From: Capsulimonadaceae bacterium
GTDB taxonomy: Bacteria; Armatimonadota; Armatimonadia; Armatimonadales; Capsulimonadaceae
Direction: 5' to 3'
Length of the DNA: 64,000 bases
NCBI GenBank assembly: GCA_965215505.1
Contig: OZ244065.1
Coordinates: 704,001 to 768,000 of the forward strand
Under the pieces are notes generated by a model that ran no database searches, had not been told where the DNA came from, and saw only the letters and a list, made by a program, of their open reading frames with translations. This document shows, piece after piece, positions 13,775 to 29,331 of the stretch (its first letter is position 1; the number at the start of each line of letters is the position of its first letter). The position numbers and the translations under genes were made by a program.

Positions 13775-15799
13775 ATGACCCTGCCGTTCCGCCCGCCCGC
13801 CGTCCCGCTCGTCACGCACGACCCCTACTTCAGCGCCTGGTCCGTCAGCGACGAGCTGACCGGAACCGAGGTCCGGCACTGGACCGGCACAAACTACGGC
13901 CTGTGCGGCCTGGTCCGCATCGACGGCCAGACTTTCCGATGCATCGGCATGATTCCCCGCGAGGTGGAGGCGATGCCACAGACGGGCCTGGAGGTGACGG
14001 CGACGCGCTCGACCTACGTCTTCGAGGCCGCCGGCGTGCGCCTCACCCTGACCTTCCTGTCGCCGCTCCTGCCGCACGACCTGGAGGTCCTGTCCCGGCC
14101 CGTGACTTACATCACCTGGGAGGCGAGTGCGACCGACGCGCGGACGCACGAGGTTTCGGTCTATTTGCACGTCCAGGGCGAGTGGGCGGTCAACAGCGCC
14201 GACCAGTCCGTCGTCTCCTCCCGCTACCGCCAGCCGGGCATGGACGTCCTGCGGATGGGATCGGCGAAGCAGCCGATCCTGGAGACGGCGGGCGACAACC
14301 TGCGGATTGACTGGGGCTACGTCTATCTCGCCGTGCCACACGAGGCACCTGGTACGGCGGCGCTCCTGGAGGCCGATCCGGGCCGCCGCGCCTTCCGCGA
14401 GACCGGGACACTTCCCGGCGCGGACCTGATCGCCGCCCCGCGCCCCGCCCACGACGGCTGGCCGGTCCTCGCCTGCGCCCTCTCGCTCGGGACGGTCGGG
14501 GACGCACCCGTCTCGCGCCATGTCCTGCTGGCCTACGACGACGTTTTCTCCATCGAGTACTTCTACCGCAAGATCCGCCCTTACTGGCGGAAGGACGGCA
14601 TGGGCATCGCCGAGCTTCTGCTCGCCGCCGAGGACGACTACGAGGCGCTGACGGGGCGGTGCGCCGACTTCGACGCCGAGATCGCCGCCGACCTCACGCA
14701 GGCGGGCGGGGAGAAGTTCGCCGCGCTCTGCGCCCTCGCCTTCCGCCAGTGCATCGCCGCCCACAAGCTGGCCGTGGACTTCGACGGCACCCCGCTGTTC
14801 CTGTCCAAAGAGAATTTTTCGAATGGCTGCATCGCGACCGTAGACGTGACCTACCCGTCCGCGCCCTTCTTCCTGCTCCTGAACCCCGACCTGCTGCGGG
14901 CGATGCTGACGCCAATCCTGGATTACGCGAACACGTCGCGCTGGCGGTTCCCCTTCGCCCCGCACGACCTGGGCACTTACCCGCTCTGCAACGGCCAGGT
15001 CTACGGGGGCGGGGAGCGGTCCGAGGACGACCAGATGCCGGTGGAGGAGTGCGGCAACATGCTGATCCTGCTGACCGCCCTGACCCAGATAGACGGCCAC
15101 ACGCGCTATGCCGAGAAGTACTGGCCCCTGCTGAACAAGTGGGCGGAGTATCTGCGCGACAAGGGCCTGGACCCGGAGAACCAGCTCTGCACCGACGACT
15201 TCGCCGGGCACCTCGCCCACAACGTCAACCTGTCGCTGAAGGCGATCATGGGATTGGGAGGCTTCGCCGCTTTGTGCGAGAAGACGGGCAGGGCCGAGGA
15301 TGCCTCGGCCTACCGCCAGGCGGCGCAGGCGATGGCCGACGAGTGGGTGGGGATGGCCGACGACGGCGACCACTCCCGGCTGGCCTTCGACAAGCCCGGC
15401 ACCTGGAGCCAGAAGTATAATCTGGTTTGGGACACCCTGCTGGGCCTGGGCCTGTTTTCGCCGGAGGTGGCCCGCCGCGAGGTGGCCTTCTACAAAACGA
15501 GGCAGAACGTCTACGGCCTGCCCCTGGACAGCCGCAGCGAGTACACCAAGCTGGACTGGATCGTCTGGACGGCGACCTTGGCCGAGAACCCCGCCGACTT
15601 CGCCGCCCTGACCGAGCCGCTCTATGCCTGGGCCGGAGAAACACCCACCCGCGTGCCTCTGACTGACTGGTATTGGACGACCGACGGAAAGCAGGTCGGC
15701 TTCCAGGCCCGCTCCGTCGTCGGCGGCCTTTACATCCCGCTGCTTAAAGACCCCGCCGTCTGGCGGAAATGGGCCGACCGCGCCAGGCCGAAGGAGTAG
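13775..15799 (+). CDS. Glutaminase GtaA-like protein (DUF5127/DUF4965/DUF1793; glycosidase-like fold)
   Basis: RPPAVPLVTHDPYFSAW, SKENFSNGCIATVDV, APHDLGTYP, MPVEECGNM, QLCTDDFAG, WSQKYNLVWD. Confidence 0.88.
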   Translation: MTLPFRPPAVPLVTHDPYFSAWSVSDELTGTEVRHWTGTNYGLCGLVRIDGQTFRCIGMIPREVEAMPQTGLEVTATRSTYVFEAAGVRLTLTFLSPLLPHDLEVLSRPVTYITWEASATDARTHEVSVYLHVQGEWAVNSADQSVVSSRYRQPGMDVLRMGSAKQPILETAGDNLRIDWGYVYLAVPHEAPGTAALLEADPGRRAFRETGTLPGADLIAAPRPAHDGWPVLACALSLGTVGDAPVSRHVLLAYDDVFSIEYFYRKIRPYWRKDGMGIAELLLAAEDDYEALTGRCADFDAEIAADLTQAGGEKFAALCALAFRQCIAAHKLAVDFDGTPLFLSKENFSNGCIATVDVTYPSAPFFLLLNPDLLRAMLTPILDYANTSRWRFPFAPHDLGTYPLCNGQVYGGGERSEDDQMPVEECGNMLILLTALTQIDGHTRYAEKYWPLLNKWAEYLRDKGLDPENQLCTDDFAGHLAHNVNLSLKAIMGLGGFAALCEKTGRAEDASAYRQAAQAMADEWVGMADDGDHSRLAFDKPGTWSQKYNLVWDTLLGLGLFSPEVARREVAFYKTRQNVYGLPLDSRSEYTKLDWIVWTATLAENPADFAALTEPLYAWAGETPTRVPLTDWYWTTDGKQVGFQARSVVGGLYIPLLKDPAVWRKWADRARPKE

Positions 15800-16747: not shown

Positions 16748-17146
16748 CTAGGAGATCGGCTCTACAGTGGCCGCTTCGGGCGTGTCGGAGGCGGGCGCGG
16801 GGTTCGGCGTCTGCACCGTCACGCTGGCATCCGGGTGGGTCGTCCCGGCGGGCGCGACCGGTGGGGCGGTGAGGCTGGCGGCGGGCTGGGGCGTCATGCC
16901 CGCCTCGCGCAATGCCTCGGTGTAGAGGTTCTGGAGGGGCCGCATGGGGACGATGCTGGTGACGGCGTGCTTATAGACGAGCTGGGTGGGCTTGCCGGGG
17001 CTGTCCAAAAGGATCGTGTAGGGATCAAAGCCGCGGACATTGCCCCGGAGCTGGACGCCGCCGATGAGGTAGATCATCACGCCGATATTCTCTTTTCGGA
17101 CCTGGTTGAGAAACGTATCCTGAAGGTTGACCTGCGGTTTGTTCAT
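16748..17146 (-). CDS. hfq: RNA chaperone Hfq with a Pro/Ala/Thr-rich C-terminal tail
   Basis: NLQDTFLNQVRKE, GVQLRG, QLVYKHAVTSI; ATG overlaps the miaA stop. Confidence 0.95.
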   Translation of the reverse strand: MNKPQVNLQDTFLNQVRKENIGVMIYLIGGVQLRGNVRGFDPYTILLDSPGKPTQLVYKHAVTSIVPMRPLQNLYTEALREAGMTPQPAASLTAPPVAPAGTTHPDASVTVQTPNPAPASDTPEAATVEPIS

Positions 17147-18102
17147 TGCGAAGCGATTTCCCCTTTGTGCTGCCGTAGCACCTGAATTCTTGCTGCGATC
17201 TCGTCCGCGATCTGCTCGGCACCCTTGCCGTCGGCGGGAACCCACTGGACGCGCGGGTCGCCCCGGAACCAGATGAGCTGACGCCGGGCGAACCGCCGCG
17301 TGTCCTGCTTCATGGCGGCGACGGCGAGGCCGAAGCTCATGTCGCCGGTCAGGGCCGCCGTCATGTGGCGGTAGCCGAGCGAGCGCATTGGTTTGAGGGT
17401 GGCGGGATAGCCCGATGCCAGCAGGCCGCGCACCTCATCAAGAAGCCCACCCTCCAGCATCTGGTCCACGCGGTCATCGATCCGCCCGTACAGGGCCGCG
17501 CGCTCGGCGAAGTTCAGGCCGAACACCAGCGGCTGTTCCTGCGGCTGCCGAGCGCGGTTCTCGGTGTGCAGGTCGGTCAGGCTCCGCCCGCTGGCGGCAT
17601 GGACCTCCAGGGCGCGGATCTGTCGCCCGATGTCATTGACGTGGAGCCGGGCCGCCGTCTCCGGGTCTATGGCCGCGACGCGCGCCAGCAGGGCGGCATT
17701 GCCGTTCGTTTCCGCAAATTCGCGCCACTGCGCGCGGAACGCCTCATCCGGCGGGGCGGTCGGGATGTCCAGAACGGTCGTCAGGGAGCGGACGTACAGC
17801 CCCGTCCCGCCGACGATCAGCGGCACATTGCCGCACGCCGCGATGGCGCGGCAGGCTTCGTCCCCGAGGCGCTGGTAATCGGCCAGAGTCCATTCCTGGT
17901 CGGGGTCGGCGACGTCAATGCCATGGAAGGCGGCCCGCCGCCGCTCTTCCGGGGTCGGCTTGGCCGTCCCGATGTCCATGTGCCGGTAGACCTGCATCGA
18001 GTCGGCGGAGACGATCTCCCCGCCGAGCCGCACAGACAGGCGGATGCCGACCGCCGTCTTGCCCGACGCCGTCGGCCCGACCAGCGCGATCCGGTCCGCC
18101 AT
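17143..18102 (-). CDS. miaA: tRNA dimethylallyltransferase
   Basis: GPTASGKT, SADSMQVY, IGTAKP, VGGTGLY, TRRFARRQLIWF; upstream TTGCGC-N17-TATACT at 18145-18173. Confidence 0.97.
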   Translation of the reverse strand: MADRIALVGPTASGKTAVGIRLSVRLGGEIVSADSMQVYRHMDIGTAKPTPEERRRAAFHGIDVADPDQEWTLADYQRLGDEACRAIAACGNVPLIVGGTGLYVRSLTTVLDIPTAPPDEAFRAQWREFAETNGNAALLARVAAIDPETAARLHVNDIGRQIRALEVHAASGRSLTDLHTENRARQPQEQPLVFGLNFAERAALYGRIDDRVDQMLEGGLLDEVRGLLASGYPATLKPMRSLGYRHMTAALTGDMSFGLAVAAMKQDTRRFARRQLIWFRGDPRVQWVPADGKGAEQIADEIAARIQVLRQHKGEIASQ

Positions 18103-18193
18103 TCGATCCCTTGGGCCTTCCGGCGTCTGCACTCGCACGGCCATAGTATAGCATATACGGGCGGGGCGCGCAAGGCGTTTCAGGCCGCTTCCG

Positions 18194-18439
18194 TCAGCCC
18201 GTCTTCGCCAGGACGGCGTCTATCTCGACGCCGTCCGGCTCGGTCAGCATCGTGTCGCCGATCCACGGGGTCGGCGTCACCTCGCGGCCCGTCCACTCGA
18301 GGACCTGGAGGCGGGCGGCCTCGTCTTCGGTGATGTCGATTTCGTCCCAGGTCACGCCGCGCTGGCGCAGGAAGTAGGCCGCGCGGGCGACATCAGGGCA
18401 GCCCGGACGGGTGTACATCGTGATCTTCGGCTGGCTCAT
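18194..18439 (-). CDS. Glutaredoxin/mycoredoxin-like protein with a single Cys (CPDV)
   Basis: ITMYTRPGCPD, EIDITED, TGREVTP; ATG overlaps the upstream stop. Confidence 0.75.
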   Translation of the reverse strand: MSQPKITMYTRPGCPDVARAAYFLRQRGVTWDEIDITEDEAARLQVLEWTGREVTPTPWIGDTMLTEPDGVEIDAVLAKTG

Positions 18440-19506
18440 TGACAGAACTCCTGGAGTTTTTCGGCGATGACTTCCGCGCCGTTGATGGGGAAGGCCTCAG
18501 CGTCAGGCCGGGCGGCGAGGGCCGATTGAAGCGCCCCCCCCCACTCCCCGGCGAAGAAGGCAGCTTCTGAGATTTCGACGCCGCCCCCCCACTTACTCAT
18601 ACCCAGAACAAGTGCCTCGTGTTCGCGGAAGCCGTAGCGCGGCAGATAGATCAAGGGGACCGAGTTCGCGATGCACTCGGTCAGGGTCCCATAGCCGGCC
18701 TTGGAGATCACGGCGTCCACGGACGCGGCCACGTCGGCGTAGCGCCACTGGCGGGCGTCGAAGGCGCGGACGTTGGCGACGGGCTGCGGCAGGGTGCTGT
18801 CCAGCAGGAAGACCCAATCCGTCCACTGCTCCAAAGCGGGCCAGTGGATGTCCAGGCCCCAGCCGCCCAGGTAGAGCAGGGCGAGGCGCTTGTCACGGGG
18901 GATGCCCAGGGCTTCGGCGAGCGCGGCGCGGCGCGGCTGACCCCGGCGGGCGACGAGGGGGACGCGCTCGACGTTCGGAAACACGTCACCCACGGTCGGC
19001 ACATTAAGCGCCGTGAGGCAGGCGATGGTCGCGGCTCCATACTCGGCGGCCATCTGCCGGAGCAGCGCGGCGTCGGCGTCCATCTCGGCATACTCCGAGT
19101 AGATGTCGTGCCAGGTGAAGTTGGCGATGGCGACGCCGGGGATGTTGGCCTGACGTGCGGCATACAGAGGGAACGGGGGGACATCGGAGGCGACGCAGCG
19201 GACGCCATGTTCCCGAAGAAACGCGACTTCTTCGGGAAGGCGGGCGGCGTTCGCCTGCGCGATCTCGGCATAGCGAGTCAGCGTCTCGCGCCGCAGCACG
19301 GTGACGCTGTCGCTTTGCAGGCAGCCGCAGTCGTACTCGGCGGACACATAGGAGAACGTGCGCCCCGGAAGCTCCTCGCGGAAGAGACGTTCCGGGGCCG
19401 TCGTTTTCAGGATCAGGGGCAGGCTTAGCGGCAGCGATTTAATGACCTGGATGCTGCGGACCGCGTGGCCGAAGCCGTGCCCCGTGATGTAATAGCAGAG
19501 TGCCAT
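18436..19506 (-). CDS. GT-B fold protein resembling the N-terminal domain of plant L-arabinokinase
   Basis: YYITGHGFGHA, DCGCLQSDSVTV, SDVPP..ANFTWHDIYSEY, SKAGYGTLTEC. Confidence 0.75.
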   Translation of the reverse strand: MALCYYITGHGFGHAVRSIQVIKSLPLSLPLILKTTAPERLFREELPGRTFSYVSAEYDCGCLQSDSVTVLRRETLTRYAEIAQANAARLPEEVAFLREHGVRCVASDVPPFPLYAARQANIPGVAIANFTWHDIYSEYAEMDADAALLRQMAAEYGAATIACLTALNVPTVGDVFPNVERVPLVARRGQPRRAALAEALGIPRDKRLALLYLGGWGLDIHWPALEQWTDWVFLLDSTLPQPVANVRAFDARQWRYADVAASVDAVISKAGYGTLTECIANSVPLIYLPRYGFREHEALVLGMSKWGGGVEISEAAFFAGEWGGALQSALAARPDAEAFPINGAEVIAEKLQEFCQ

Positions 19507-19509
19507 GGG

Positions 19510-21003
19510 CTAGGCCAGGTTCAGCACCAATGTCTGCACCGAGCAGGGGGGGAGGCTCAGGGTCAGCGTGTCCCCCTGCGCCTGCACGTCCGTCTGCGTG
19601 ATCCCGACGGCATCCGGCTGCTCGGCGGTGTTGTAAGCGTTGGCGGCCCCCGCCATCGTGTGCAGTCGGCCCCCATGCAGGGTGGCGTCGCGGATGGTCA
19701 CGGTGACCTCCTGGGCCTCGTCCTTCTGCCGGTTGCTGAGGCTGACGATGAGCCGGCCGTCCTTCTTGGAGGCGGACGCCGACAGGAGCGGCATGCTGCC
19801 GGACGGCAGATTGGCCCCGTGCATGTTGGTGATTGCCTTGGCGTCGCGCTCCGGGGCGTCGCCGATCTCGGCGCGGACGGCCTGCGCGCCCCGGTGCGGG
19901 GCATACAGGGCGAACAGGTGATAGGTGGGCGTCAGCCACATCTTCTCGCCCTTGGTCTGGACGAGGGCTTGCAGGACGTTGACGATCTGGGCGATGTTCG
20001 CCGTCGAAACCCGGTCGCACCACTTGTGGAAGACATCCAGGACGCCCGCGCCGATCACGGCATCACGGATCGTGCTGGGCGCCTCATAGTCGGTGCCCGT
20101 AACGGCCTCGGGGTGCCAGATGCCCCACTCATCAAAGGCGATGCCGATCTTCTTTTTGCGGCCCGACGTGAAGAAACGCAAAATCTCGTCGGTGAACCGG
20201 ATGTCGTCTTCCACCAGGGCAGAGGCGTGCATGGAGGCGTAGTAGTCGTCGTCGCTGAAACTGACGGCGGGACCGTGGACCCAGTACTGATGGACCGAGA
20301 CGTGGTCCAGCAGGCTCAGGTGGTTCCGCATGACCTCGACCAGCTTCATGTTCCAGTCGCGGTTGTTCAGGCCACAGGCCACCAGCTCGATGGAGTTGTC
20401 CGCCATCTTCAGGAAGGTCCCGAACCGCTTGAACTCCTTGGCGTAGCTCTCGGCGTCATAATTGCCGCCGCAGCCCCAGTTCTCGTTCCCCACCCCCCAG
20501 AACTTGACATCCATCGGGGCGGCGTGGCCGTTCGCGGCCCGCTCGCGGGCGAGTGTCGTGTCGGCCTTGCCGTTGCAGTAGACGACCCAATCGGCCAGCT
20601 CCTGGGCGGAGCCGGAGCCGACGTTCCCGGCGAGGTATGGGTCGGCCCCAATCATCCGGCAAAGGTCAATGAACTCGTGCGTCCCCAAGGTGTTGTCCTC
20701 GACGACGTTCAGGCCGCAGCTCTCGGCCCAGGTCCGGGGGCGGGATTCGCTCGGCCCGATGCCGTCGCGCCAGTGGTAGGAGTCGGCGAAGCAGCCGCCC
20801 GGCCAGCGCAGTTGGGGGATGCCGACGGCCTTCAGCGCCTCGATGATGTCGGTGCGGAACCCGCCCTGGTTGGGGATGGACGACGTGGGGCCGACCCAAA
20901 GCCCGTCATAGCAGCAGCGGCCCAGATGCTCGGCGAAGTGGCCGTGGATGTAGGGGGAGATGGTGCCGAGGGTTTCATCGGCGTGGATGGTGAGTTTGGA
21001 CAA
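19510..21003 (-). CDS. abfA: GH51 alpha-L-arabinofuranosidase
   Basis: GHFAEHLGRC, RWPGGCFAD, WGVGNENWGCGG, FDEWGIW, ANIAQIVNVLQA. Confidence 0.92.
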   Translation of the reverse strand: MSKLTIHADETLGTISPYIHGHFAEHLGRCCYDGLWVGPTSSIPNQGGFRTDIIEALKAVGIPQLRWPGGCFADSYHWRDGIGPSESRPRTWAESCGLNVVEDNTLGTHEFIDLCRMIGADPYLAGNVGSGSAQELADWVVYCNGKADTTLARERAANGHAAPMDVKFWGVGNENWGCGGNYDAESYAKEFKRFGTFLKMADNSIELVACGLNNRDWNMKLVEVMRNHLSLLDHVSVHQYWVHGPAVSFSDDDYYASMHASALVEDDIRFTDEILRFFTSGRKKKIGIAFDEWGIWHPEAVTGTDYEAPSTIRDAVIGAGVLDVFHKWCDRVSTANIAQIVNVLQALVQTKGEKMWLTPTYHLFALYAPHRGAQAVRAEIGDAPERDAKAITNMHGANLPSGSMPLLSASASKKDGRLIVSLSNRQKDEAQEVTVTIRDATLHGGRLHTMAGAANAYNTAEQPDAVGITQTDVQAQGDTLTLSLPPCSVQTLVLNLA

Positions 21004-21028
21004 GTTAAGCCTCTTTGGAGTATGGGGA

Positions 21029-21766
21029 TTAGGATCTGCGGTGGACGAGAGTGGCGGTCGCCTGGTCGAGCGGGCGGATCGTCATCTGGTCAATGTTGAC
21101 ATGGGGCGGGCGCGTCACGGCCCAAACGATGGCATCCGCGACATCGTCCGCCGTCAGCGGCGTCATTCCCTGGTAGGGCTTCGTCGCCCGCTCGGCGTCG
21201 CCGCCGAAGCGGATCAGGCTGAACTCGGTTTCCACCAGGCCGGGCGCGATCTCGGTGACGCGGACCGGCTTGCCGAGCAGTTCCAGGCGCAGAGTCTCGG
21301 CGACGGCGCGCTCGGCGTGTTTGGCCGCCGTGTACCCCGCGCCACCGGGATAGACTTCAAACCCGGCGATGCTGCCGATGACGACTATGTGCCCCTGCCC
21401 GGACGCTTCCAGCTTGGGCAGGAGGGTCCGGGTCATCCGCATGGTCCCCAGGACGTTCGACTCGAACATCGTCCGCCACTTCTCGTCCTCGGCCTCGGCG
21501 ATGGGTTCCAGGCCCAAAGCCCCGCCCGCATTGTTGACCAGGACGTTTATGGCGGGGACCTGCTCGCAGAAGGCCGCGACGCTGGCCGCATCAGTCACGT
21601 CCAGGGCAAAAGCCCGCGCGCCGAGCGGCGCTGCTACGGCCTGCAACTTGTCCATCCGGCGCGCGCCGAGGACGAGGTCGTAGCCGGCCTGGGCCAAGTG
21701 ATGGGCGGTGGCAGCGCCGATGCCGCTGCTCGCGCCGGTGACGACGGCGATAGGTTTATTTGTCAT
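21029..21766 (-). CDS. SDR oxidoreductase (YdfG-like)
   Basis: TGASSGIG, NNAG, YTAAK, PGLVETEFS; start at ATG 21766. Confidence 0.9.
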   Translation of the reverse strand: MTNKPIAVVTGASSGIGAATAHHLAQAGYDLVLGARRMDKLQAVAAPLGARAFALDVTDAASVAAFCEQVPAINVLVNNAGGALGLEPIAEAEDEKWRTMFESNVLGTMRMTRTLLPKLEASGQGHIVVIGSIAGFEVYPGGAGYTAAKHAERAVAETLRLELLGKPVRVTEIAPGLVETEFSLIRFGGDAERATKPYQGMTPLTADDVADAIVWAVTRPPHVNIDQMTIRPLDQATATLVHRRS

Positions 21767-21785
21767 AGGATATCTTTCATAGAAC

Positions 21786-22979
21786 CTAAAAATGATCCTG
21801 CAAGTAGCAAACGGCGGGCGGTAGCAGCCGGGACAGCACCTGGTACTGCGCCTCGTCACCGACCGTCAGCCGCCCCGCCGCGCGGAGCAAGTCGAGGGAA
21901 GGCTGGCCCCAATACGCCTGCGACAATGCCTGGATGTCCAGCGAGACGCCGGGGGCGTCTTGGGTGGGCGCGGCGGTCACTCGCCCGGCCTCGGCAGTGA
22001 CCGCGAACGTCCGGTTGTTCCACTCGCAGGAGCTATCCGAGACTTGCAGGATGACGCGGCCCGTCAACATAGGCTCCGGCGTCAGCGCGGCGAGTGCTGG
22101 GACAACGTCCACGACGCGGCCCATGAACAGGGGGCTGATCGTCGTGTTCAGGTCGTAATGCATCACATGGAGCGGCAGCGGGTCATCGGCTGGGGCGGAG
22201 AAATCCACCCGGCGTACCTGTGTCCCGTAATAGTGCAGCGTGGACAGCAGCCCGCGATAGGCGGCGGGCGTGTTGGCGAAGAACTCGCCGACATGGCCCG
22301 TCTCGCCGCCGTGCGGATAGCGGAATGACAGATAGCCCTCAGCCTGGTCCGTTAAGGGGTCGTGGTAGACCTGAACATAAGTCGTCCGGTTGTCATGGTG
22401 CGAGAGTGATCGCTTCCAGAAGTTCGGCTGGGCATCAGCCCGCGTCGCCATGCCGCGATGGCGGCGGGCAAACGTCTCATAAATGGGCCGCACGACTTCG
22501 ACCGCCTCCAAACCCTCATAGCAGCGGACGTGTTTGCCTTCCGGGCTGGCCCGGATCTCCGCCGTGGGCAGGTCATAATGCCGCTTCTCCCCCACCCACT
22601 CCCAGCCGTGCCGCCGGTAGAAGGCGTAGGCGAACGGGTACAGGCCGCTCGTGAACCGCCCGGCGTCCCGCATCACGCGCAACGACTCGCCCATCAGGCG
22701 GCCGACGTGGCCCCGCCCGCGCTGTTCAGCCGCGCAGGCGACACCCGCAATGCCGCCCATCGGCAGAGTGGCCGCGCCCCAGATCATATGCAGGTCGTGG
22801 ATCGTCGCCGCCGCGACCAGGCGCGTGCCGTCGAACACGCCCAAAGTCGTGCTGACGCGGTCCTTGTCCTCCTCCGGCTCGGGCGCAGAGGGGCGGCTGC
22901 CGCCGGAGAAAGCCTCCGACATCAGCCGCGATAGGGCCGCGTCATCGTCCGGCGTCAGTGCGCGCAGTTCAGTCGTCAT
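21786..22979 (-). CDS. Eis-family GNAT acetyltransferase with an SCP2 domain
   Basis: GGIAGVA..EQRGRG, LYPFAYAFYRRHGWE, MGRVVDV, C-terminal YLQDHF. Confidence 0.88.
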   Translation of the reverse strand: MTTELRALTPDDDAALSRLMSEAFSGGSRPSAPEPEEDKDRVSTTLGVFDGTRLVAAATIHDLHMIWGAATLPMGGIAGVACAAEQRGRGHVGRLMGESLRVMRDAGRFTSGLYPFAYAFYRRHGWEWVGEKRHYDLPTAEIRASPEGKHVRCYEGLEAVEVVRPIYETFARRHRGMATRADAQPNFWKRSLSHHDNRTTYVQVYHDPLTDQAEGYLSFRYPHGGETGHVGEFFANTPAAYRGLLSTLHYYGTQVRRVDFSAPADDPLPLHVMHYDLNTTISPLFMGRVVDVVPALAALTPEPMLTGRVILQVSDSSCEWNNRTFAVTAEAGRVTAAPTQDAPGVSLDIQALSQAYWGQPSLDLLRAAGRLTVGDEAQYQVLSRLLPPAVCYLQDHF

Positions 22980-23003
22980 AAGATGAGAAGCCTTACGAGC
23001 CAG

Positions 23004-23154
23004 GACGAGTGAATGAATTCACTCGCTCCACTTGGAAGCGTCCAAGGGACGCGAGAACAGGGTGATGCCACCCCGTCTTTCCCCTCCTCTGTTCTTCCAC
23101 CTCTTCTGTCCCCTGGACAGGTCTGGCGGCAGCGAGTGATCTCAATCACTCGTC
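23004..23154. repeat. REPIN-like composite inverted repeat (family A variant)
   Basis: GACGAGTGAATGAATTCACTCGCT ... AGCGAGTGATCTCAATCACTCGTC with inner GTCCAAGGGAC / GTCCCCTGGAC. Confidence 0.8.
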
Positions 23155-23176
23155 TTTTTCGTCTTGTCGCGTCTTC

Positions 23177-24325
23177 CTACACCTTCACCGCCCGCGCGCC
23201 CTGGGCGGCGCGGCAGGCGTAGACGTGGGCCTCATAGTCCGTCTTTTCCTTGTACTGGGCGGCAAGGTCACGGCAGAACTGCGGGACAGCCTCGGCATGG
23301 ACCAGGTTGACCGAGCAGCCGCCCCAGCCGCCGCCCGTCAGCTTTGCGCCGATGCAGCCGGGCAGGCGGGCGGCGAGGGCGACCAGCAGGTCTATCTCGG
23401 GCGTCGAGTTTTCAAAGAGGTCGCGGCAGGACGCATGGCCTTCCGCCAGAAGCTGACCCATTCGCGTCACGTCGCCCTTCTGGGCGGCCTCGCGCATCGC
23501 CAGGACGCGCTTGTCTTCGCTGAGGACGTGCCGCGCCCGCTTGCGCTGGTTCTCGGGCAGTTCGCCCTCGCGCGCCATGAACTCCTCCCAGGTGACTTCG
23601 CGCAGGAGCCGCTTGCCGAAGTGGGCGGCGGCGGCCATGCACTCGGCGTGGCGCGTGGCGTAGTCGCCGCTGGTCAGGGCATGCTTGACGTTGGAGTCGC
23701 AGACGACGATGGCGATGTCGTCCCGGCCCATCTTGACGGCGGTATGTTCCAGGGTCAGGCAGTCCAGGAACAGCAGACCGTCCTGAACGCCGAACACGGA
23801 CGAAAACTGGTCCAGGATGCCGCAGGGGACGCCCACGAACTCGTTCTCCGCCTTCTGGCAGAGCCGCGCGATCTGCATCGGGTCGCGGTCGTAAGGGAAC
23901 AACTGCTGCAAGAAAAACGCCGTCGCCACTTCCAGGGCCGCCGACGAGGACAGCCCCGCCCCGCCCGGCACGTCGCTGTGGATGACGGCATTGAAGCCGC
24001 CGATACTCACGCCCTCCCGCTTGAGCTGCTGGACGACGCCCAGCACATAGCTGGCCCACGAGTTGTGCGGGTCGGCCTGGATGTCCTTCGCCGAGACGGA
24101 CGAGTCTCGCCGGAAGTCGGCGGCGTGGAGGGAGATCGTATCGTTCCCCGTCGGCGACCCGGCCACGACCGTGCCTTTGTCCAGGGCGGCGGGCAGGACG
24201 AACCCGCCGTTGTAGTCGGTGTGGTTGCCCATGATCTCGACCCGCCCCGGCGCGAGCGCGGCGGCTTCGGGCGCGGACCCGAAGCGGCGCGTGTAGGCCG
24301 CGACGGCGTTGTCTACGAGTGCCAT
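23177..24325 (-). CDS. galK: Galactokinase-family GHMP sugar kinase
   Basis: APGRVEIMGNHTDYNGG, PGGAGLSSSAA, CGILDQ, GAKLTGGGWGG. Confidence 0.88.
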   Translation of the reverse strand: MALVDNAVAAYTRRFGSAPEAAALAPGRVEIMGNHTDYNGGFVLPAALDKGTVVAGSPTGNDTISLHAADFRRDSSVSAKDIQADPHNSWASYVLGVVQQLKREGVSIGGFNAVIHSDVPGGAGLSSSAALEVATAFFLQQLFPYDRDPMQIARLCQKAENEFVGVPCGILDQFSSVFGVQDGLLFLDCLTLEHTAVKMGRDDIAIVVCDSNVKHALTSGDYATRHAECMAAAAHFGKRLLREVTWEEFMAREGELPENQRKRARHVLSEDKRVLAMREAAQKGDVTRMGQLLAEGHASCRDLFENSTPEIDLLVALAARLPGCIGAKLTGGGWGGCSVNLVHAEAVPQFCRDLAAQYKEKTDYEAHVYACRAAQGARAVKV

Positions 24326-24352
24326 TGTGTCATCCCTTTGTCATCAGAATCG

Positions 24353-24568
24353 TCACAAGTCGCGCGGCGTGAGGCCGGTTTGTTTAGCGATTCGGGCCAG
24401 CATTATCGGGCCGATCTCCACCCCGTCATGGAAGGCCCAGATGTAGTCCGGCCAATCCGCGCGTTCCAATACGATATGGGAACCACCGCTCCGGCGCTTG
24501 ATGCTCCAGCCGATACGAAGAAGCGCCGCCAGAACACGCCCCGCCTTTGTAGAAGGCCATTGACTCAT
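24353..24568 (-). CDS. hicA: HicA family mRNA interferase toxin
   Basis: RIGWSIKRRSGGSH..L, AFHDGVEIGP.MLARIAKQTGL. Confidence 0.88.
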   Translation of the reverse strand: MSQWPSTKAGRVLAALLRIGWSIKRRSGGSHIVLERADWPDYIWAFHDGVEIGPIMLARIAKQTGLTPRDL

Positions 24569-24592
24569 GAATGCGCCTTCATTACGAAATTC

Positions 24593-24811
24593 TCATGCCG
24601 CAATGGAGAAAACCTGTGGCAGTACATCCACTTGTTCCGGCAAAGTTTCTCCATGCTCAACCCGGTCCGCAAGGACCCGCAGCGCGAGAACTTGGGCACG
24701 GACAACCGCCTCAGTACGGGTTTCGCCGTAGGCCAGCACGCCGGGGAGTTCGGGGATCTCACTTAACCAGCGGCCGTCCTCTTCTTGTTCGACTTCAATG
24801 GAAATTCGCAC
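24593..24811 (-). CDS. hicB: HicB family antitoxin
   Basis: IEVEQEEDGRWLSEIPELPGVLAYGET. Confidence 0.88.
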   Translation of the reverse strand: MRISIEVEQEEDGRWLSEIPELPGVLAYGETRTEAVVRAQVLALRVLADRVEHGETLPEQVDVLPQVFSIAA

Positions 24812-24827
24812 TGTTTCACCTTCTGTC

Positions 24828-25367
24828 TCACTGCACCCGCCGATAGATGCCGTTCGCGCGCTCCATCAGCCCCGTGTCCACCATCTCGCGGCGCAGGCTC
24901 GCGTAGTCCTCGTGGTAGTTCAAGAGCAGGTAGCTGACTTCCTGCTCGGTGTAGGCGCGGCCCGTCTCGAACTTCCCGACCAGGTAGCGCAGGACGACCT
25001 CCCGCTTCTTGCGCTGGACCGGGATGGTTTTCAGCCTGCCGTTGACAAAGAAGTCCCCCAGCACCCGCGCGTCAAAGGCGGACGCATCGGGCGGCAGGTC
25101 GGACGCGCTGGCCGCCGCTTTCGTCTCGCGCAACGCCTCAAAGATCGCCGACGGCTTGTACCGCCAGCGGAAACCGTCGTGGGCGAACGTCTCCTCCAGC
25201 AGCCCCGCCGCTTTGAGCGGCGGCAGCAAGGCCATCGTCTCCGCCTCGGATAGTCCCGCCGCCCGCGCCAGCGTGTGCAGGGGGAGTGGGTCGCCGCAGA
25301 GCTGGCCCAGCAATTTGACCTTCTTCGGGTCGGCGAACACGCGCAGGATGTCGGCGGGGTTGGTCAC
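24828..25367 (-). CDS. ArsR-type HTH + DUF2087 protein
   Basis: LRVFADP N-terminus; GRLKTIPVQRKKR, YTEQEV, DYASLRREMVD. Confidence 0.85.
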   Translation of the reverse strand: MTNPADILRVFADPKKVKLLGQLCGDPLPLHTLARAAGLSEAETMALLPPLKAAGLLEETFAHDGFRWRYKPSAIFEALRETKAAASASDLPPDASAFDARVLGDFFVNGRLKTIPVQRKKREVVLRYLVGKFETGRAYTEQEVSYLLLNYHEDYASLRREMVDTGLMERANGIYRRVQ

Positions 25368-25661
25368 GCTAACCTATCGCCTCCGCCACATAGATTTTGG
25401 GATTTCGCCTAGAACGTGGGAGTTTAAGCCTGGATCGTTCTGGTCTGCTCGATATTCACGGACTTCTTTGCGATCTGTGTTCCATCGAACGACGATCTTG
25501 CAGCCATGCTGAAGATAAATTTGCTTTAGGAACGGCGCAGCTCCCAACGCTTCCTGTATTTTGGCATCGTACACGTCATCACCGGAACGCTCGTAGTCGC
25601 CAATATGAACTGACGTTTCCCCCGTTTTATGTACCACGGGCAGAGTGAGCGCTTCTGTTGT

Positions 25662-26483
25662 CTAGCCGGGCGGCTTCTTTTCCGCCTGCTCCCGTTGCCA
25701 GGCCCGCGCATACGCGGCGGGCGGCACATACTTCAGGCTGCTGTGCGGACGCTCCTCATTGTACCAGAGCCGATGCGCTCCCAGCCGCACCTGGGCGTCC
25801 TGAACCGAGGCGAAGACCTCGCGGTCAAGCAACTCGTCGCGCAGTTTGCCGTGGAAGCTCTCCTGGAACCCGTTCTGCCACGGGCAGCCAGGGTCGATGT
25901 AGTGCGGCGCGGAGCCGCTGCTCGAAAGCAGGCTCTGGACCTCGCCCGCGATGAACTCGGGACCGTTGTCGCTGCGGACGAAGCGCGGGACGCCGCGCAC
26001 AGCGAACAACGGCTTCAAGGCGGCAAGCACTGCCCCGCTGGTCAGGGACACGCCCACCGTCACGGACAGCCACTCGCGCGTGAACTCGTCCAGGATGTTC
26101 AGCAGGCGGATCTTGCGACCAGAGAGCAGCCCGTCCTCCTGGAAGTCGTAGCTCCAGACGTGGTCGGGGTGCTCCGCCTGGCAGGGCACGCGCCGCCCCG
26201 CCCTGACCTTGCGCTTCTTCGGGCACTGCGGCACTTGCAGGCCGCTCTTTCGCCAGACGCGCTCCACGCGCTTGCGGTTGACGAGGTGGCCGCCCGCCCG
26301 CAAGAGCGCGTGGGCGCGCGGGATGCCGAAGCGCGGGTGCTTCCGCTTGATCCGCTCAAGCTGCTCCCGGAGCGGCTGGTCGTCACGCGGGTGCGCCTGG
26401 TAGCGGGCGCTGGAACGCGAGATTTTCGCCAGGCGGCAGGCTTGGCGCTGTGAGAGGCCGCGCTCCACCGCCTGCGAGACCAC
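25662..26483 (-). CDS. IS3 transposase OrfB (DDE integrase core), reached by -1 frameshift
   Basis: WSYDF, RSDNGPEF, PWQNGFQESF; frame is -1 relative to OrfA. Confidence 0.93.
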   Translation of the reverse strand: MVSQAVERGLSQRQACRLAKISRSSARYQAHPRDDQPLREQLERIKRKHPRFGIPRAHALLRAGGHLVNRKRVERVWRKSGLQVPQCPKKRKVRAGRRVPCQAEHPDHVWSYDFQEDGLLSGRKIRLLNILDEFTREWLSVTVGVSLTSGAVLAALKPLFAVRGVPRFVRSDNGPEFIAGEVQSLLSSSGSAPHYIDPGCPWQNGFQESFHGKLRDELLDREVFASVQDAQVRLGAHRLWYNEERPHSSLKYVPPAAYARAWQREQAEKKPPG

Positions 26484-26518
26484 CGCGCGCCCCTCGGCCA
26501 GCGGGTCGGCGGCCTCGG

Positions 26519-26785
26519 CTACTTTTTTTGCAGGATCTCCTTGATGATGTCGACCTCCAGGTCGCGCTCGGCGAGCAGGCGCTTGAGGCGGGCGTTCTCT
26601 TTTTCCAGCTCGCGCAGGCGGGCGGCTTCATTGACGGTCGCACTGCCGAAGCGCGAGCGCCAGCGGTAGAAGCTGTTCTCGGAGACGTTGTGCTGGCGGC
26701 AGACTTCGGCGATAGTCTGTTCGCCCTTCTCGGCCTGCTGCAAGATGGCGACGATCTGCGCGTCGGTGAACTGGCTCTTCTGCAT
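26519..26785 (-). CDS. IS3 transposase OrfA (HTH)
   Basis: KSQFTDAQIVAIL, VCRQHNVSENSFYRW, RLRELEKENARLKRL; ends in slippery A7G followed by TAG. Confidence 0.93.
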   Translation of the reverse strand: MQKSQFTDAQIVAILQQAEKGEQTIAEVCRQHNVSENSFYRWRSRFGSATVNEAARLRELEKENARLKRLLAERDLEVDIIKEILQKK

Positions 26786-26962
26786 TCGAGTATTCTACCT
26801 TTCGGGTCAATACTCACCTTGCGAATGGTACAGTTTTTGGGGGAAAGGTCAGAACCTCTCCGTCGTAGATTTGTAGATGGCTCAGATGCGGGGTGGCACG
26901 AACCCTGTTGATTGTGAACATAATCTACCTCATACACCTGGTACATAATGCCGTTCCTCATG

Positions 26963-27607
26963 TCACGCAACACGGTGGAATGGCCCATACAAAAAGAAGT
27001 CTACATAAACTTGCACGCCAAAAGCAGAACCGCCACTGATAGAGCCAGTAGTAGCAACACCCTCAGAAAACCAATTTGGCAGTATGTTGGCGGCATTCTC
27101 ACGCAATGCGTCGCTGGTTGATATTGTGTATGCCTTATTTAACGCATCAATATACTTCACGACGTTGCTAAACTTCATGTCTACTACTCTACTGGGGTGT
27201 GTCACTAGCAACAGGGCGAAAACCTGCGTCTGCTCGTTTGCTACACCCCGCGCCTTCTGAATGTCGGCAACCACCGCCCTCTGATAGCCTGCCTTTGTCG
27301 CATCAAAGGTGTACATGGATTTAAGTTCAACGATAGCGGCGGGCGAATCATTCTCCAGTATAGCTATGTCTGAGTGCCGCCACTCACGGGCGACGAGAAG
27401 CCCTTTCCGAGTCAACTGACGATACAACTGGAATGCAATCGCGTCACGAATGACGAACTCAGGTTTCGACGTAAGAGCAAGGTAAGCAAGCTCGTCCGGC
27501 TCGAAATTGGTGGCTAGTCCGTTCAGGATGTTTAGCAGGAGAGGCTGGTATTCCAAAGTATTCCTTTCAGCCCGCTCGCCGCGCGAGGTCTTTATAAACT
27601 TCGTCAT
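26963..27607 (-). CDS. Hypothetical protein with a PD-(D/E)XK-like motif
   Basis: AREW..SDIAIL....IVELK; visibly AT-richer than flanking genes; start uncertain. Confidence 0.6.
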   Translation of the reverse strand: MTKFIKTSRGERAERNTLEYQPLLLNILNGLATNFEPDELAYLALTSKPEFVIRDAIAFQLYRQLTRKGLLVAREWRHSDIAILENDSPAAIVELKSMYTFDATKAGYQRAVVADIQKARGVANEQTQVFALLLVTHPSRVVDMKFSNVVKYIDALNKAYTISTSDALRENAANILPNWFSEGVATTGSISGGSAFGVQVYVDFFLYGPFHRVA

Positions 27608-27836
27608 CGTTTCGCTTTCCGACGACCACGATACGGACGATGCTGTCTACTACCGTGTAGCAGACACGGAACTCCCCAGAGTCGATGCGGCGGTAGCCCG
27701 CATAGCCGGAAAGATGCTTGGCATCATTGGGGTATGGGTCACGAAGTAAGTCATGGATTTTCGACGCCACTTGCTTGAACTGTTTGGGCTGCAAACCTTG
27801 CAGGAAGCTGTGTGCATCTTTGGAAAGGTCGAGCAT
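27567..27836 (-). CDS. RelE/ParE family toxin
   Basis: KQFKQV..KI..L..DPYPND.KHLSGY..YRRIDSGEFRVCY, VVGKRNDDEVY. Confidence 0.9.
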   Translation of the reverse strand: MLDLSKDAHSFLQGLQPKQFKQVASKIHDLLRDPYPNDAKHLSGYAGYRRIDSGEFRVCYTVVDSIVRIVVVGKRNDDEVYKDLARRAG

Positions 27837-28384
27837 TACAGGTCAACTCCCATCTGCGCGAAGAAAGCACGGGTTTCGTCTACACCGATGAATCCTTTTC
27901 GTTCCGCCTGTTCAATGTAGTCATCCGCAATTTCATTGCCGAAGGCGATGGACAGGTATTTGAATGTGCCTTCTTCCATCTCTTCCAGAATCGCGTAGGC
28001 TTCATGTAGCACAGCGGAGCATAGTTCGCCTTGATCTTCAAGCCCTTCGGATTTGGCTTGGTAACGCAGGGCTGCATTGGCCAGGCGACCGAAAAGCTCG
28101 ATCTTGGAGTTGCCACCATAGAGAGGGAGGAATATGTCTCGCAACTGGAAGAAGAGCCAGCTAAGTTGCGCCGCATGAGGCGTGACAACAAATCGGGGAG
28201 CGGGGTAGAAGGCGTCCGGCTCAATCTCAGGCTGCTCGGAGGTTATTACAACGTCCGCGCCCACCCACTCCTCCGGCTTGGCGTCTGGTACATCCTGCTC
28301 CACAATGACAGGGATAGGCTCGTCACGCAGACGCGCGGAGAGGGTGTTCAATGCTTCTCTAGCGGTAGTGAATTCTGTGTCCAT
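27836..28384 (-). CDS. Hypothetical protein, probable atypical antitoxin
   Basis: Stop overlaps the toxin start (TAATG); acidic C-terminus EQAERKGFIGVDETRAFF; AAGGAG RBS. Confidence 0.6.
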   Translation of the reverse strand: MDTEFTTAREALNTLSARLRDEPIPVIVEQDVPDAKPEEWVGADVVITSEQPEIEPDAFYPAPRFVVTPHAAQLSWLFFQLRDIFLPLYGGNSKIELFGRLANAALRYQAKSEGLEDQGELCSAVLHEAYAILEEMEEGTFKYLSIAFGNEIADDYIEQAERKGFIGVDETRAFFAQMGVDL

Positions 28385-28403
28385 TGATGACTCCTTTGTT
28401 GAG

Positions 28404-29138
28404 CTACTGCGACTCGAATTCAGCGTTGATGGCGGCGTAGTCTTCGGGCGTACCCACGTCGCGCCACTTGCCTTCCAGGGCGATGCCTTTGGTGGGGTGG
28501 TCGTCGTTAATCATTGCGGTGATGGCGTCGGGCAATTCGTACTCGCCGCGCGCGGAGGGGACGATCCTGGAGGTGTAGTCGAAGATGAGCGGATCGAAGA
28601 TGAACAGGCCGGCGTTGTTCCAGTGGGTCGCCGCCGTGCCTTTGGCGGGCTTCTCCTGGATGCGCTGGATGATGTTGTTCTCGTCGAGGTAGACGGCGGC
28701 CCCGGCCCAGGGGTCCTCCACCCAGTTCAGGCCGACGTAGGCTTTGATCTCGCGGGTGCCCGTCTCGACGTAGGCGTCCCCGAAGCGGCCGTAGTTGACG
28801 GGGTCCAGCATGATGTCGCCATAGGTCATCAGGAACGGGGCGGCGGACAGGGCGGCGCGGGCGGTGTTGACGGCGTCCCCCACCCCGCGCGGGACCTCCT
28901 GGGGGACGTACTCGATCTGCCAGCCCCATTCGGAGCCGTCACCTAAATAATCCTGCAAGACCTCGGCCTTGTAGCCGGTGATCAGGACGAACTCGCGGAT
29001 GGGCGTCGTGGCGGCGATGCCCTCCATGATGCGCTCGATCATGGGGACGCCGCCGATGGGGATCATGGGCTTGGGCTGGTCGGCGGTCAAAGCGCCGAGG
29101 CGGGTGCCGCGTCCGGCGGCGAGGAGGAGGGCTTTCAT
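28404..29138 (-). CDS. Sugar-phosphate nucleotidyltransferase (RmlA/GlmU-like)
   Basis: LLAAGRGTRL..PKPM, YGDI, EKP, SARGEYELPD, WRDVGTPED; start ATG 29138 with GGAGA RBS. Confidence 0.88.
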   Translation of the reverse strand: MKALLLAAGRGTRLGALTADQPKPMIPIGGVPMIERIMEGIAATTPIREFVLITGYKAEVLQDYLGDGSEWGWQIEYVPQEVPRGVGDAVNTARAALSAAPFLMTYGDIMLDPVNYGRFGDAYVETGTREIKAYVGLNWVEDPWAGAAVYLDENNIIQRIQEKPAKGTAATHWNNAGLFIFDPLIFDYTSRIVPSARGEYELPDAITAMINDDHPTKGIALEGKWRDVGTPEDYAAINAEFESQ

Positions 29139-29153
29139 CGTGTATCTCCAGGC

Positions 29154-29261
29154 AAGGCCAACGTCTTCAAGAAGGCCAACGTCTTCAAGAAGGCCAACGT
29201 CTTCAAGAAGGCCAACGTCTTCAAGAAGGCCAACGTCTTCAAGAAGGCGAACGTCTTCAAG
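29154..29261. repeat. 18-bp tandem repeat x6 (AAGGCCAACGTCTTCAAG)
   Basis: Five exact copies plus one C>G variant, running into a REP arm. Confidence 0.95.
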
Positions 29262-29263
29262 AA

Positions 29264-29331
29264 GGGCGAACACAAGGTTCGCTCCTACGGGGTAATCGGC
29301 GTCGGCGTAGGGGTGAACCTTGTGTTCACCC
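29264..29331. repeat. GTAG-type REP doublet (family B)
   Basis: GGGCGAACACAAGGTTCGCTCCTAC and GTAGGGGTGAACCTTGTGTTCACCC; same core at 46940-46960. Confidence 0.8.

Follow-up and report, generated by a model that had tools for sequence, protein, structure and literature searches.

What does a protein that resembles the N-terminal half of the plant L-arabinokinase ARA1 do in a bacterium, beside genes of sugar salvage? The question arises from a stretch of 64,000 nucleotides of a Capsulimonadaceae bacterium (GCA_965215505.1, contig OZ244065.1:704,001-768,000; hereafter the window, to which positions refer unless another contig or locus is named), in which the gene of a 356-residue protein with a GT-B fold lies downstream of a galactokinase-type (GalK) gene of the GHMP kinase family. 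In a paper of 2025 the N-terminal half of ARA1 is still called a "putative glycosyltransferase" (PMC12281597), and a search for arabinokinases with a glycosyltransferase domain found no paper in the literature library used. A stand-alone bacterial version of this half beside sugar-salvage genes offers a testable idea of what the plant half does. We found that the GT-B protein is a homologue of the plant domain over its full length and that its gene stays linked to a sugar-1-kinase gene in two families of Armatimonadota beyond the background synteny. Its most likely function, which we favour tentatively and at a little under an even chance, is that of a glycosyltransferase that is coupled to salvage and uses a nucleoside diphosphate (NDP)-sugar.

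A stand-alone homologue of the ARA1 N-domain

Residues 1-353 of the GT-B protein aligned with residues 23-377 of the Papaver L-arabinokinase (118 of 366 positions identical, 32%, E 5e-45). The resemblance to the ARA1 N-domain that the initial annotation had claimed for 18436-19506 is thus borne out by pairwise alignment and by 15 invariant residues held in common with plants (listed below), and the motifs that it had named are all present in the translation (YYITGHGFGHA, DCGCLQSD, SDVPP, NFTWHDIYSEY and KAGYGTLTE). A search among longer proteins gave five matches, all from plants and 981-1029 residues long (E 4e-38 to 1e-10; four are named L-arabinokinase), and among proteins of similar length there were 303 matches, nearly all of them unnamed (the source of one calls it an L-arabinokinase). 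When 1.84 billion representatives were scanned, 3052 clusters matched at E<=1e-3 and 344 at E<=1e-30, and the best 150 clusters consisted, with few exceptions, of stand-alone proteins of ~330-390 residues; glycosyltransferase clusters retrieved from the ESM Atlas were unnamed or loosely named. The searches and the cluster scan together indicate that the ARA1-N family is large, mostly bacterial and uncharacterised. With the plant N-domain as query, mainly plant fragments were returned, in addition to short proteins (406-471 residues) of algae, protists and fungi in which this domain is present; the latter (P0396, P0397, P0323 and P0327) come from early-diverging fungi, green algae or protists and are either complete genes or fragments. 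No bacterial form in which kinase and GT-B domain are fused was seen in the protein searches or at the loci of ARA1-type kinases (see below); long open frames at some of these kinases were considered as fused forms and rejected, since they reflected read-through from upstream or a gene next to the kinase.

A quick tree computed from 56 members of the family placed the eukaryotic proteins and four metagenome proteins in one clade (support of 99 in the Shimodaira-Hasegawa-like approximate likelihood ratio test, SH-aLRT), and the clade of the GT-B protein (99) comprised the two Armatimonadota families, Sumerlaeota, Nitrospinota and Fibrobacterota, so that the protein of the window is not the nearest bacterial relative of the plant domain. 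Two Pfam models came close to the GT-B protein below their thresholds (PF13528, 21.3 bits against a cut-off of 25; PF04101, 21.8 against 22), none of the NCBIfam models matched it, and with the single protein as query no solved structure was retrieved by sequence. A search with the family profile reached uridine diphosphate (UDP)-glycosyltransferases of the YjiC type (E 3e-5) and, weakly, the galactolipid synthase MGD1 (E 4.5e-4).

The AlphaFold (AF2) model of the protein, computed from an alignment of 68 diverse members (predicted local distance difference test, pLDDT, 97.0; predicted template modelling score, pTM, 0.94), has the two Rossmann domains of a GT-B fold and superimposes on YojK with Z 22.8 over 331 residues. 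Among the Foldseek matches listed, the best were glycosyltransferases, mostly GT1 natural-product enzymes and plant UDP-glycosyltransferases (E ~4e-13), and the second structural scan, from which the score above comes, was headed by YojK (22.8), the kitacinnamycin glycosyltransferase (22.4), SpnG (22.0), CalG1 (21.8) and MurG (21.8); enzymes of the same fold that act on UDP-N-acetylglucosamine (UDP-GlcNAc) without transferring it, i.e., 2-epimerases and NeuC, were also among the structural matches (Z 18-20). In a profile alignment with Bacillus YjiC, the stretch K-x-G-Y-G...E and E295 are matched to the H-G-G...E and Y-E-Q stretches, which in GT1 enzymes bind the diphosphate, ribose and sugar of the donor; K269, G271, E277 and E295, the residues that align with H-G-G...E and E-Q, may accordingly have binding or catalytic roles, as may H14 and D108, if the GT1 enzymes are a guide. 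Fifteen residues are invariant in a set of 17 bacterial, plant, algal and fungal sequences (G13, H14, R17, E93, D108, N129, F130, Y136, Y156, G214, K269, G271, Y272, R290 and E295). At the level of sequence, invariance of this kind across kingdoms points to a single common activity, in ligand binding or catalysis, and it also means that the plant N-domain has not decayed into a relic.

Linkage to sugar-1-kinase genes

The GT-B gene was found in 50 of the 401 Armatimonadota genomes searched (24 of the 28 genomes of the window's family, 22 of the 24 of its sister family, and 3 elsewhere), and its linkage was counted at 26 genome loci of Capsulimonadaceae and 13 loci of the sister family (loci are cited by L numbers). 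In Capsulimonadaceae, a GalK gene lies upstream of it on the same strand at 22 of the 26 loci (three of the others are cut by contig ends and one is without GalK in 8 kb), and a nucleotidyltransferase gene precedes GalK at 18 loci and abuts it at 7. No other gene intervenes between the three at loci of the Capsulimonas type (in L023 they are 15 and 9 bp apart; in L004, 27 bp separate the nucleotidyltransferase from GalK). The nucleotidyltransferase, which the initial annotation had counted in the cassette, can therefore stay there as an ancestral member, whereas the GH51 arabinofuranosidase, also counted in, falls outside the conserved core, since its gene is beside GT-B at just 14 of the 26 loci. 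The Eis gene is present at six of the 26 (L002, L003, L010, L011, L025 and L026) and the SDR gene directly upstream of the GT-B or the GH51 gene at most loci of the family; GH51, SDR and Eis are later, variable inserts. In one long-contig metagenome-assembled genome (L026), the matches to GT-B, GH51, Eis and DapF are interrupted or split, and we suspect assembly frameshifts rather than pseudogenes.

The sister family shows that the linkage of the GT-B gene with a GHMP sugar-1-kinase exceeds background synteny: at 8 of its 13 loci GalK is found no more than 8 kb upstream in the same orientation (within ~300 bp at 4), although none of the window's other seven flanking genes is retained at any of the 13, NADH dehydrogenase genes lying downstream instead. 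At L128, a locus of the window's own family, a GH43 gene starts 3 bp after the GT-B gene and is followed by a GH51-like gene; glycosidase neighbours of GT-B thus arose at least twice (GH51 upstream in the window, GH43 and the GH51-like gene downstream in L128).

The kinase of the window has 382 residues and the motif GRVEIMGNHTDYNGG. It scores 347 bits with the galactokinase model TIGR00131, above the cut-off of 226.65, its closest solved structure is human GALK1 (E 1.7e-83), and its identity to the ARA1 kinase half is only 28% over 282 residues; the equivalence to that half claimed for it by the initial annotation is not upheld. The canonical signature G-E-H-T-D-Y, with E in human GALK1 too, reads G-N-H-T-D-Y in the window kinase, and R28, D37, D172 and Y222 match GALK1 (judged by eye in the alignment). 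N34, the residue at issue, is invariant in 22 of 22 kinases upstream of a GT-B gene. Glu stands at this site in 30 of 30 GalKs of other Armatimonadota families (chosen as the best matches to the Pfam signature and hence leaning towards the consensus) and in all three genomes of other families that have a GT-B gene. In the two families, all 11 further GalKs, which do not adjoin GT-B, share the Asn, three of them coming from genomes in which the GT-B gene was not found. A co-evolution of this change with GT-B was considered and rejected, because the change follows the clade and neither the presence nor the adjacency of GT-B; such a distribution indicates a single evolutionary event. The replaced Glu presumably contacts the C6 hydroxyl of the sugar (no passage confirming this was found in the literature), and its change to Asn may or may not alter the choice of sugar. 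The kinase is the sole GalK-type gene of the 6.18-Mb genome, in which the other match to the signature is a 333-residue GHMP kinase beside an HAD phosphatase, and the GalT gene is 4 Mb away (C1:4806540-4810007, L076). GalT there stands between a GH2 beta-galactosidase-like gene and the gene of a protein with an arabinofuranosidase C-domain and a 3-keto-disaccharide-hydrolase-like domain.

Kinases of the ARA1 type proper form another class, of ~420-505 residues, which carries the motif GRLDVMGGIADYSG as in Papaver ARA1, without the signature Glu, and is 37-49% identical to Papaver ARA1 residues ~498-997 (E 1e-84 to 5e-154). They stand alone in 114 of the 401 genomes (L163, L164, L170-L172 and L179-L195 among the loci) and were not found in the genome of the window; in family f8, all 32 genomes have one and none of the 32 has the GT-B gene. 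Both halves of ARA1 therefore exist as separate bacterial genes that are mostly unlinked. The neighbours of the stand-alone ARA1-type kinases included no constant partner, only occasionally a 317-residue nucleotidyltransferase, and at L179/L180 a GH51 gene directly follows the kinase. The sole true split-ARA1 arrangement seen occurs among 80 metagenome GT-B loci, where at L201:3579-7062 and the identical L202 an ARA1-type kinase (456 residues, 37% identical to Papaver ARA1 residues 506-992, E 3e-82), the 317-residue nucleotidyltransferase and a GT-B gene stand in a row with gaps of 0 and 79 bp; the GT-B protein is 57% identical to that of the window, and enolase and amidase genes lie downstream. 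As its own kinase is GalK-type and not ARA1-type, the locus of the window, which had been put forward as such a split ARA1, is a relative of the ARA1 arrangement and not a split copy of it.

The pair of ARA1-type kinase and 317-residue nucleotidyltransferase recurs without GT-B in three other families. A nucleotidyltransferase 63% identical to the L201 type is also encoded in the window's own genome, at C1:159500-169500 (L276), where its gene lies between the HAD and NUDIX genes of a run of araA, Zn-dehydrogenase, FGGY kinase, class II aldolase, HAD, NUDIX, PhyH, enolase and amidase genes. Its place in this araA cluster ties the 317-residue type to L-arabinose metabolism, and the araA/araB/araD-like genes show that the classical route of catabolism is present in the genome; the description as "distinct from AraABD" suits the locus of the window but not the genome.

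Outside the order, 49 genome loci of GT-B homologues were inspected (Nitrospinota, Fibrobacterota, Sumerlaeota, Planctomycetota and Pseudomonadota; 42 with at least 3 kb upstream). In Nitrospinota, a small ATC_hydrolase-like gene, GT-B, GT2 and GT28-like genes form a run whose flanking genes recur in 28 or 29 loci (L034 and ~28 others), with DAO oxidoreductase, class III aminotransferase and PTPS genes divergently upstream. In L033 (Chitinivibrionales), the gene of an LPG_synthase_TM-family membrane protein overlaps the GT-B start. These contexts fit a biosynthetic glycosyltransferase, and a Pfam search of 81 neighbours from 12 of the loci did not find a GHMP kinase. As these loci are without the kinase, its linkage is no rule of the whole family. 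The co-occurrence of GT-B homologues with GHMP kinases and GH51 that the initial annotation had suggested is consequently found in part: the kinase is kept near GT-B in two families, but GH51 is variable, and at the loci of other phyla no kinase was seen in the flanks inspected.

Possible functions of the GT-B protein

If the GT-B protein is a salvage-coupled glycosyltransferase, the cassette would work in the cytoplasm, where glycosidases such as the inserted GH51 enzyme would release galactose or L-arabinose from plant oligosaccharides that the cell has taken up. The kinase, to judge from its family, would make the sugar-1-phosphate and the nucleotidyltransferase, likewise, the NDP-sugar, which the GT-B protein would bind in order to pass the sugar to an acceptor. 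We infer this donor, the acceptor and the sugar (galactose or L-arabinose), as well as any contact between the proteins, from the homology, fold, conserved residues, gene order and distribution given above; a co-fold of GalK and the GT-B protein (alignments A4 and A3) scored 0.00, under the mark, and gave no verdict either way. The strongest argument is that two kinase types and two nucleotidyltransferase types occur immediately upstream of one and the same GT-B family, which suggests that such a pair makes the compound with which the GT-B protein works.

Several observations weigh against this function. The whole block of Capsulimonadaceae is syntenic, including RNase III, MiaA, Hfq and DapF, so that the linkage is partly inherited gene order and weak evidence when taken alone. 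An adjacent kinase is missing at 5 of the 13 loci of the sister family as well as at three loci of Capsulimonadaceae, L125 and L126 (one genus) and L128 (another), no GalK- or ARA1-type kinase lies in the flanks of any of the 49 loci of other phyla (in Nitrospinota the neighbours are the GT2 and GT28-like genes), 69 further metagenome GT-B loci are without a kinase neighbour, and the arrangement with an ARA1-type kinase is known from one organism only, as L201 equals L202. Being the only GalK of its genome, with GalT elsewhere, the kinase may simply be a Leloir galactokinase. For the GT-B protein itself, the Pfam glycosyltransferase models stay below threshold and NCBIfam gives no match, and no member of the uncharacterised ARA1-N family has a known donor, acceptor or activity.

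Some of these observations would suit a GT-B protein that is an envelope or glycolipid glycosyltransferase, which its relatives in Nitrospinota and Fibrobacterota seem to be, and stands near GalK by chance in one order. Its neighbours outside the order (GT2 and GT28-like genes at 28 loci, the LPG_synthase_TM protein in L033), the weak profile match to MGD1 (E 4.5e-4) and the several loci of the order without a kinase would all be expected then. A chance adjacency is nevertheless hard to reconcile with a kinase-GT-B pair that persists where the other synteny between the families is gone, with a different kinase and a different nucleotidyltransferase in the same position in L201, or with plants, which fuse both functions into one protein, and we consider it unlikely. 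We are equally reserved about the model of the initial annotation, in which the kinase and a non-catalytic GT-B protein are the two subunits of an L-arabinokinase and GH51 supplies the L-arabinose that becomes NDP-L-arabinose. The homology of the GT-B protein to ARA1-N, the 3 bp between its gene and GH51, and the one lineage that couples the GT-B gene to a true ARA1-type kinase are in its favour, and so is the kinase, in that L-arabinopyranose is galactose minus C6 and the kinase has N at the site that is E in GALK1 and in 30 of 30 GalKs of other Armatimonadota, a residue that the ARA1-type kinases (GRLDVMGGIADYSG) are likewise without. However, the kinase ranks as a genuine galactokinase by its score and is the only one of its genome, which has GalT beside a GH2 beta-galactosidase-like gene, and the change from E to N is a trait of the clade that goes back to one evolutionary event. 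ARA1-type kinases do without GT-B in whole families (f8, 32/32 versus 0/32), GH51 is present at 14 of the 26 loci only, and residues invariant across kingdoms favour a ligand-binding or catalytic site over a passive partner.

A GT-B protein that senses or hydrolyses the NDP-sugar would limit the flux through salvage, as feedback or a safety valve, and would build no glycoconjugate. In favour of such a protein, PMC12281597 reports that overexpression of the ARA1 kinase domain alone raised UDP-L-arabinose ~8-fold on feeding of L-arabinose and led to cell death, whereas wild-type seedlings tolerate it. The stretch that aligns with the GT1 nucleotide-sugar motif is conserved, and the 2-epimerases and NeuC, which carry out no UDP-GlcNAc transfer, are among its structural matches (Z 18-20). 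The top structural matches, though, are transferases, and the Nitrospinota homologue sits among two other glycosyltransferase genes, which suits biosynthesis; we rate a sensor or hydrolase as improbable, more so than a chance adjacency or a two-subunit kinase.

Returning to the salvage-coupled glycosyltransferase, one may ask how far it extends to the family. That ARA1-N as a whole is an active, uncharacterised glycosyltransferase family, with UDP-L-arabinose or UDP-galactose from the linked kinase and pyrophosphorylase as donor, seems to us possible but on balance doubtful. If it were so, plant ARA1 would combine kinase and glycosyltransferase in one bifunctional enzyme, its N-domain either draining the sugar nucleotide or reporting on it, and this would account for the toxicity of the kinase domain when it is overexpressed without the N-domain. 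For a large unnamed family, the bacterial neighbourhoods with sugar-1-kinases and NDP-sugar pyrophosphorylases suggest a concrete biochemical role, and a small soluble bacterial protein is far easier to use in ligand binding, activity screens and crystallography than a plant enzyme of 1000 residues. The locus also presents an unusual galactokinase variant and, in soil Armatimonadota that break down arabinan and galactan, a salvage of sugars resembling that of plants.

The gene run of the window and known systems

On the minus strand, the genes follow each other in the order nucleotidyltransferase, 4-kb insert, GalK, Eis-like, SDR, GH51, GT-B, glutaredoxin-like, MiaA, Hfq and DapF (Table 1). 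The co-directional run from the GHMP kinase through Eis, SDR and GH51 to GT-B that the initial annotation had described was recovered with Pfam and NCBIfam, as was the nucleotidyltransferase further upstream on the same strand, beyond the accessory inserts and ~4 kb from GalK.

Table 1. Features of the gene run on the minus strand, with window positions
Feature	Position	Strand	Evidence
Nucleotidyltransferase (sugar-1-phosphate nucleotidylyltransferase)	28404-29273	-	PF00483 E 1.8e-38, from residue 47
Lineage-specific insert: DUF2087 gene (24828-25367), insertion sequence (IS) integrase (rve; 25662-26483), 3 open reading frames (ORFs) without Pfam match	24326-28403		
Galactokinase-type GHMP kinase, GNHTDY instead of GEHTDY	23177-24325	-	PF10509, PF00288, PF08544; TIGR00131
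Eis-like GNAT acetyltransferase with SCP2 domain, accessory insert	21786-22979	-	PF13527, PF17668, PF13530
SDR, YdfG-like; listed start probably too far upstream	21029-21859	-	PF00106 E 2.6e-46 from residue 37
GH51-type alpha-L-arabinofuranosidase, variable insert	19510-21003	-	PF06964 E 1.6e-37
356-residue GT-B protein, stand-alone ARA1 N-domain homologue	18436-19506	-	Full-length ARA1 alignment, model
Glutaredoxin-like protein, 81 residues	18194-18439	-	PF00462 E 1.5e-10

The guanine-plus-cytosine (GC) content of the window is 0.57-0.70 overall and dips to 0.57 at 26-28 kb, inside the insert between nucleotidyltransferase and GalK, which is absent from L004, L009 and L023, where the two genes abut. 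GalK and GT-B are 3.7 kb apart with three genes between them. The gap between GH51 and GT-B is 3 bp from stop to start (tag-ccc-atg), as had been noted, and the start of the glutaredoxin-like gene overlaps the GT-B stop by 4 bp (ATGA); this gene appears translationally coupled to GT-B and is retained there in most loci of the genus. The GH51 protein scores 129.7 bits with PF06964 (Alpha-L-AF_C domain; cut-off 27) and aligns over residues 3-493 with NF051901 at 249.7 bits, under the equivalog cut-off of 625; in its N-terminus, read by eye only, a signal peptide was not evident. RNA contigs of one run cover GalK, GH51 and SDR in short pieces, many of them 90-95% alike, leave the GT-B gene uncovered and are uninformative on transcription. 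Further downstream, the Hfq ORF (16748-17245, 165 residues, Hfq domain at residues 41-104) overlaps the MiaA ORF (17143-18144) by ~100 bp, its listed start probably being too far upstream, and a GtaA-like protein with DUF4964, DUF5127 and six-hairpin domains is encoded on the plus strand (13775-15799), whose homologue in L128 adjoins the GT-B gene.

Among known systems, the AmgK/MurU pair, in which an anomeric sugar kinase and a sugar-1-phosphate nucleotidylyltransferase bypass de novo synthesis, follows the same salvage logic, but its kinase family and its sugar differ from those of the window, whose nucleotidyltransferase reaches 97.9 bits with the MurU model (sub-threshold, cut-off 250); this pair is not known to have a GT-B partner. 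The GT1 enzymes (YojK/YjiC, OleD, CalG and plant UDP-glycosyltransferases) share the fold (Z 20-23, 300-330 residues aligned) and the C-terminal nucleotide-sugar stretch with the GT-B protein, at 11-18% identity; the latter, however, has Lys at the His of the GT1 H-G-G, and its N-terminal loop G-H-G-F-G-H-x-x-R is peculiar to its family. A glycine-rich N-terminal loop is shared with the GT28 enzymes MurG (Z 21.8) and MGD1 (Z 17.6, profile E 4.5e-4), and PF04101 comes near its threshold, although this Pfam match stays below the cut-off and lipid-related genes are not present at the locus of the window.

Closer in theme are the bacterial stand-alone ARA1-type kinases, some of which are followed by the 317-residue nucleotidyltransferase in what resembles a plant-like salvage; unlike the kinase of the locus, they were not found in this genome, are mostly unlinked to GT-B and occur in families where GT-B was not found. 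The closest counterpart of the GT-B protein is the N-domain of ARA1 itself (EC 2.7.1.46). In ARA1 both halves are joined in one polypeptide, with this domain N-terminal to the kinase, whereas in the window the GT-B protein is encoded by a separate gene downstream of the kinase gene, the partner is GalK-type instead of ARA1-type (~480 residues with inserts), and the eukaryotic sequences form a clade of their own (SH-aLRT 99) apart from that of the GT-B protein. Common to both are the homology over the full length, the same 15 invariant residues and the association with a GHMP sugar-1-kinase.

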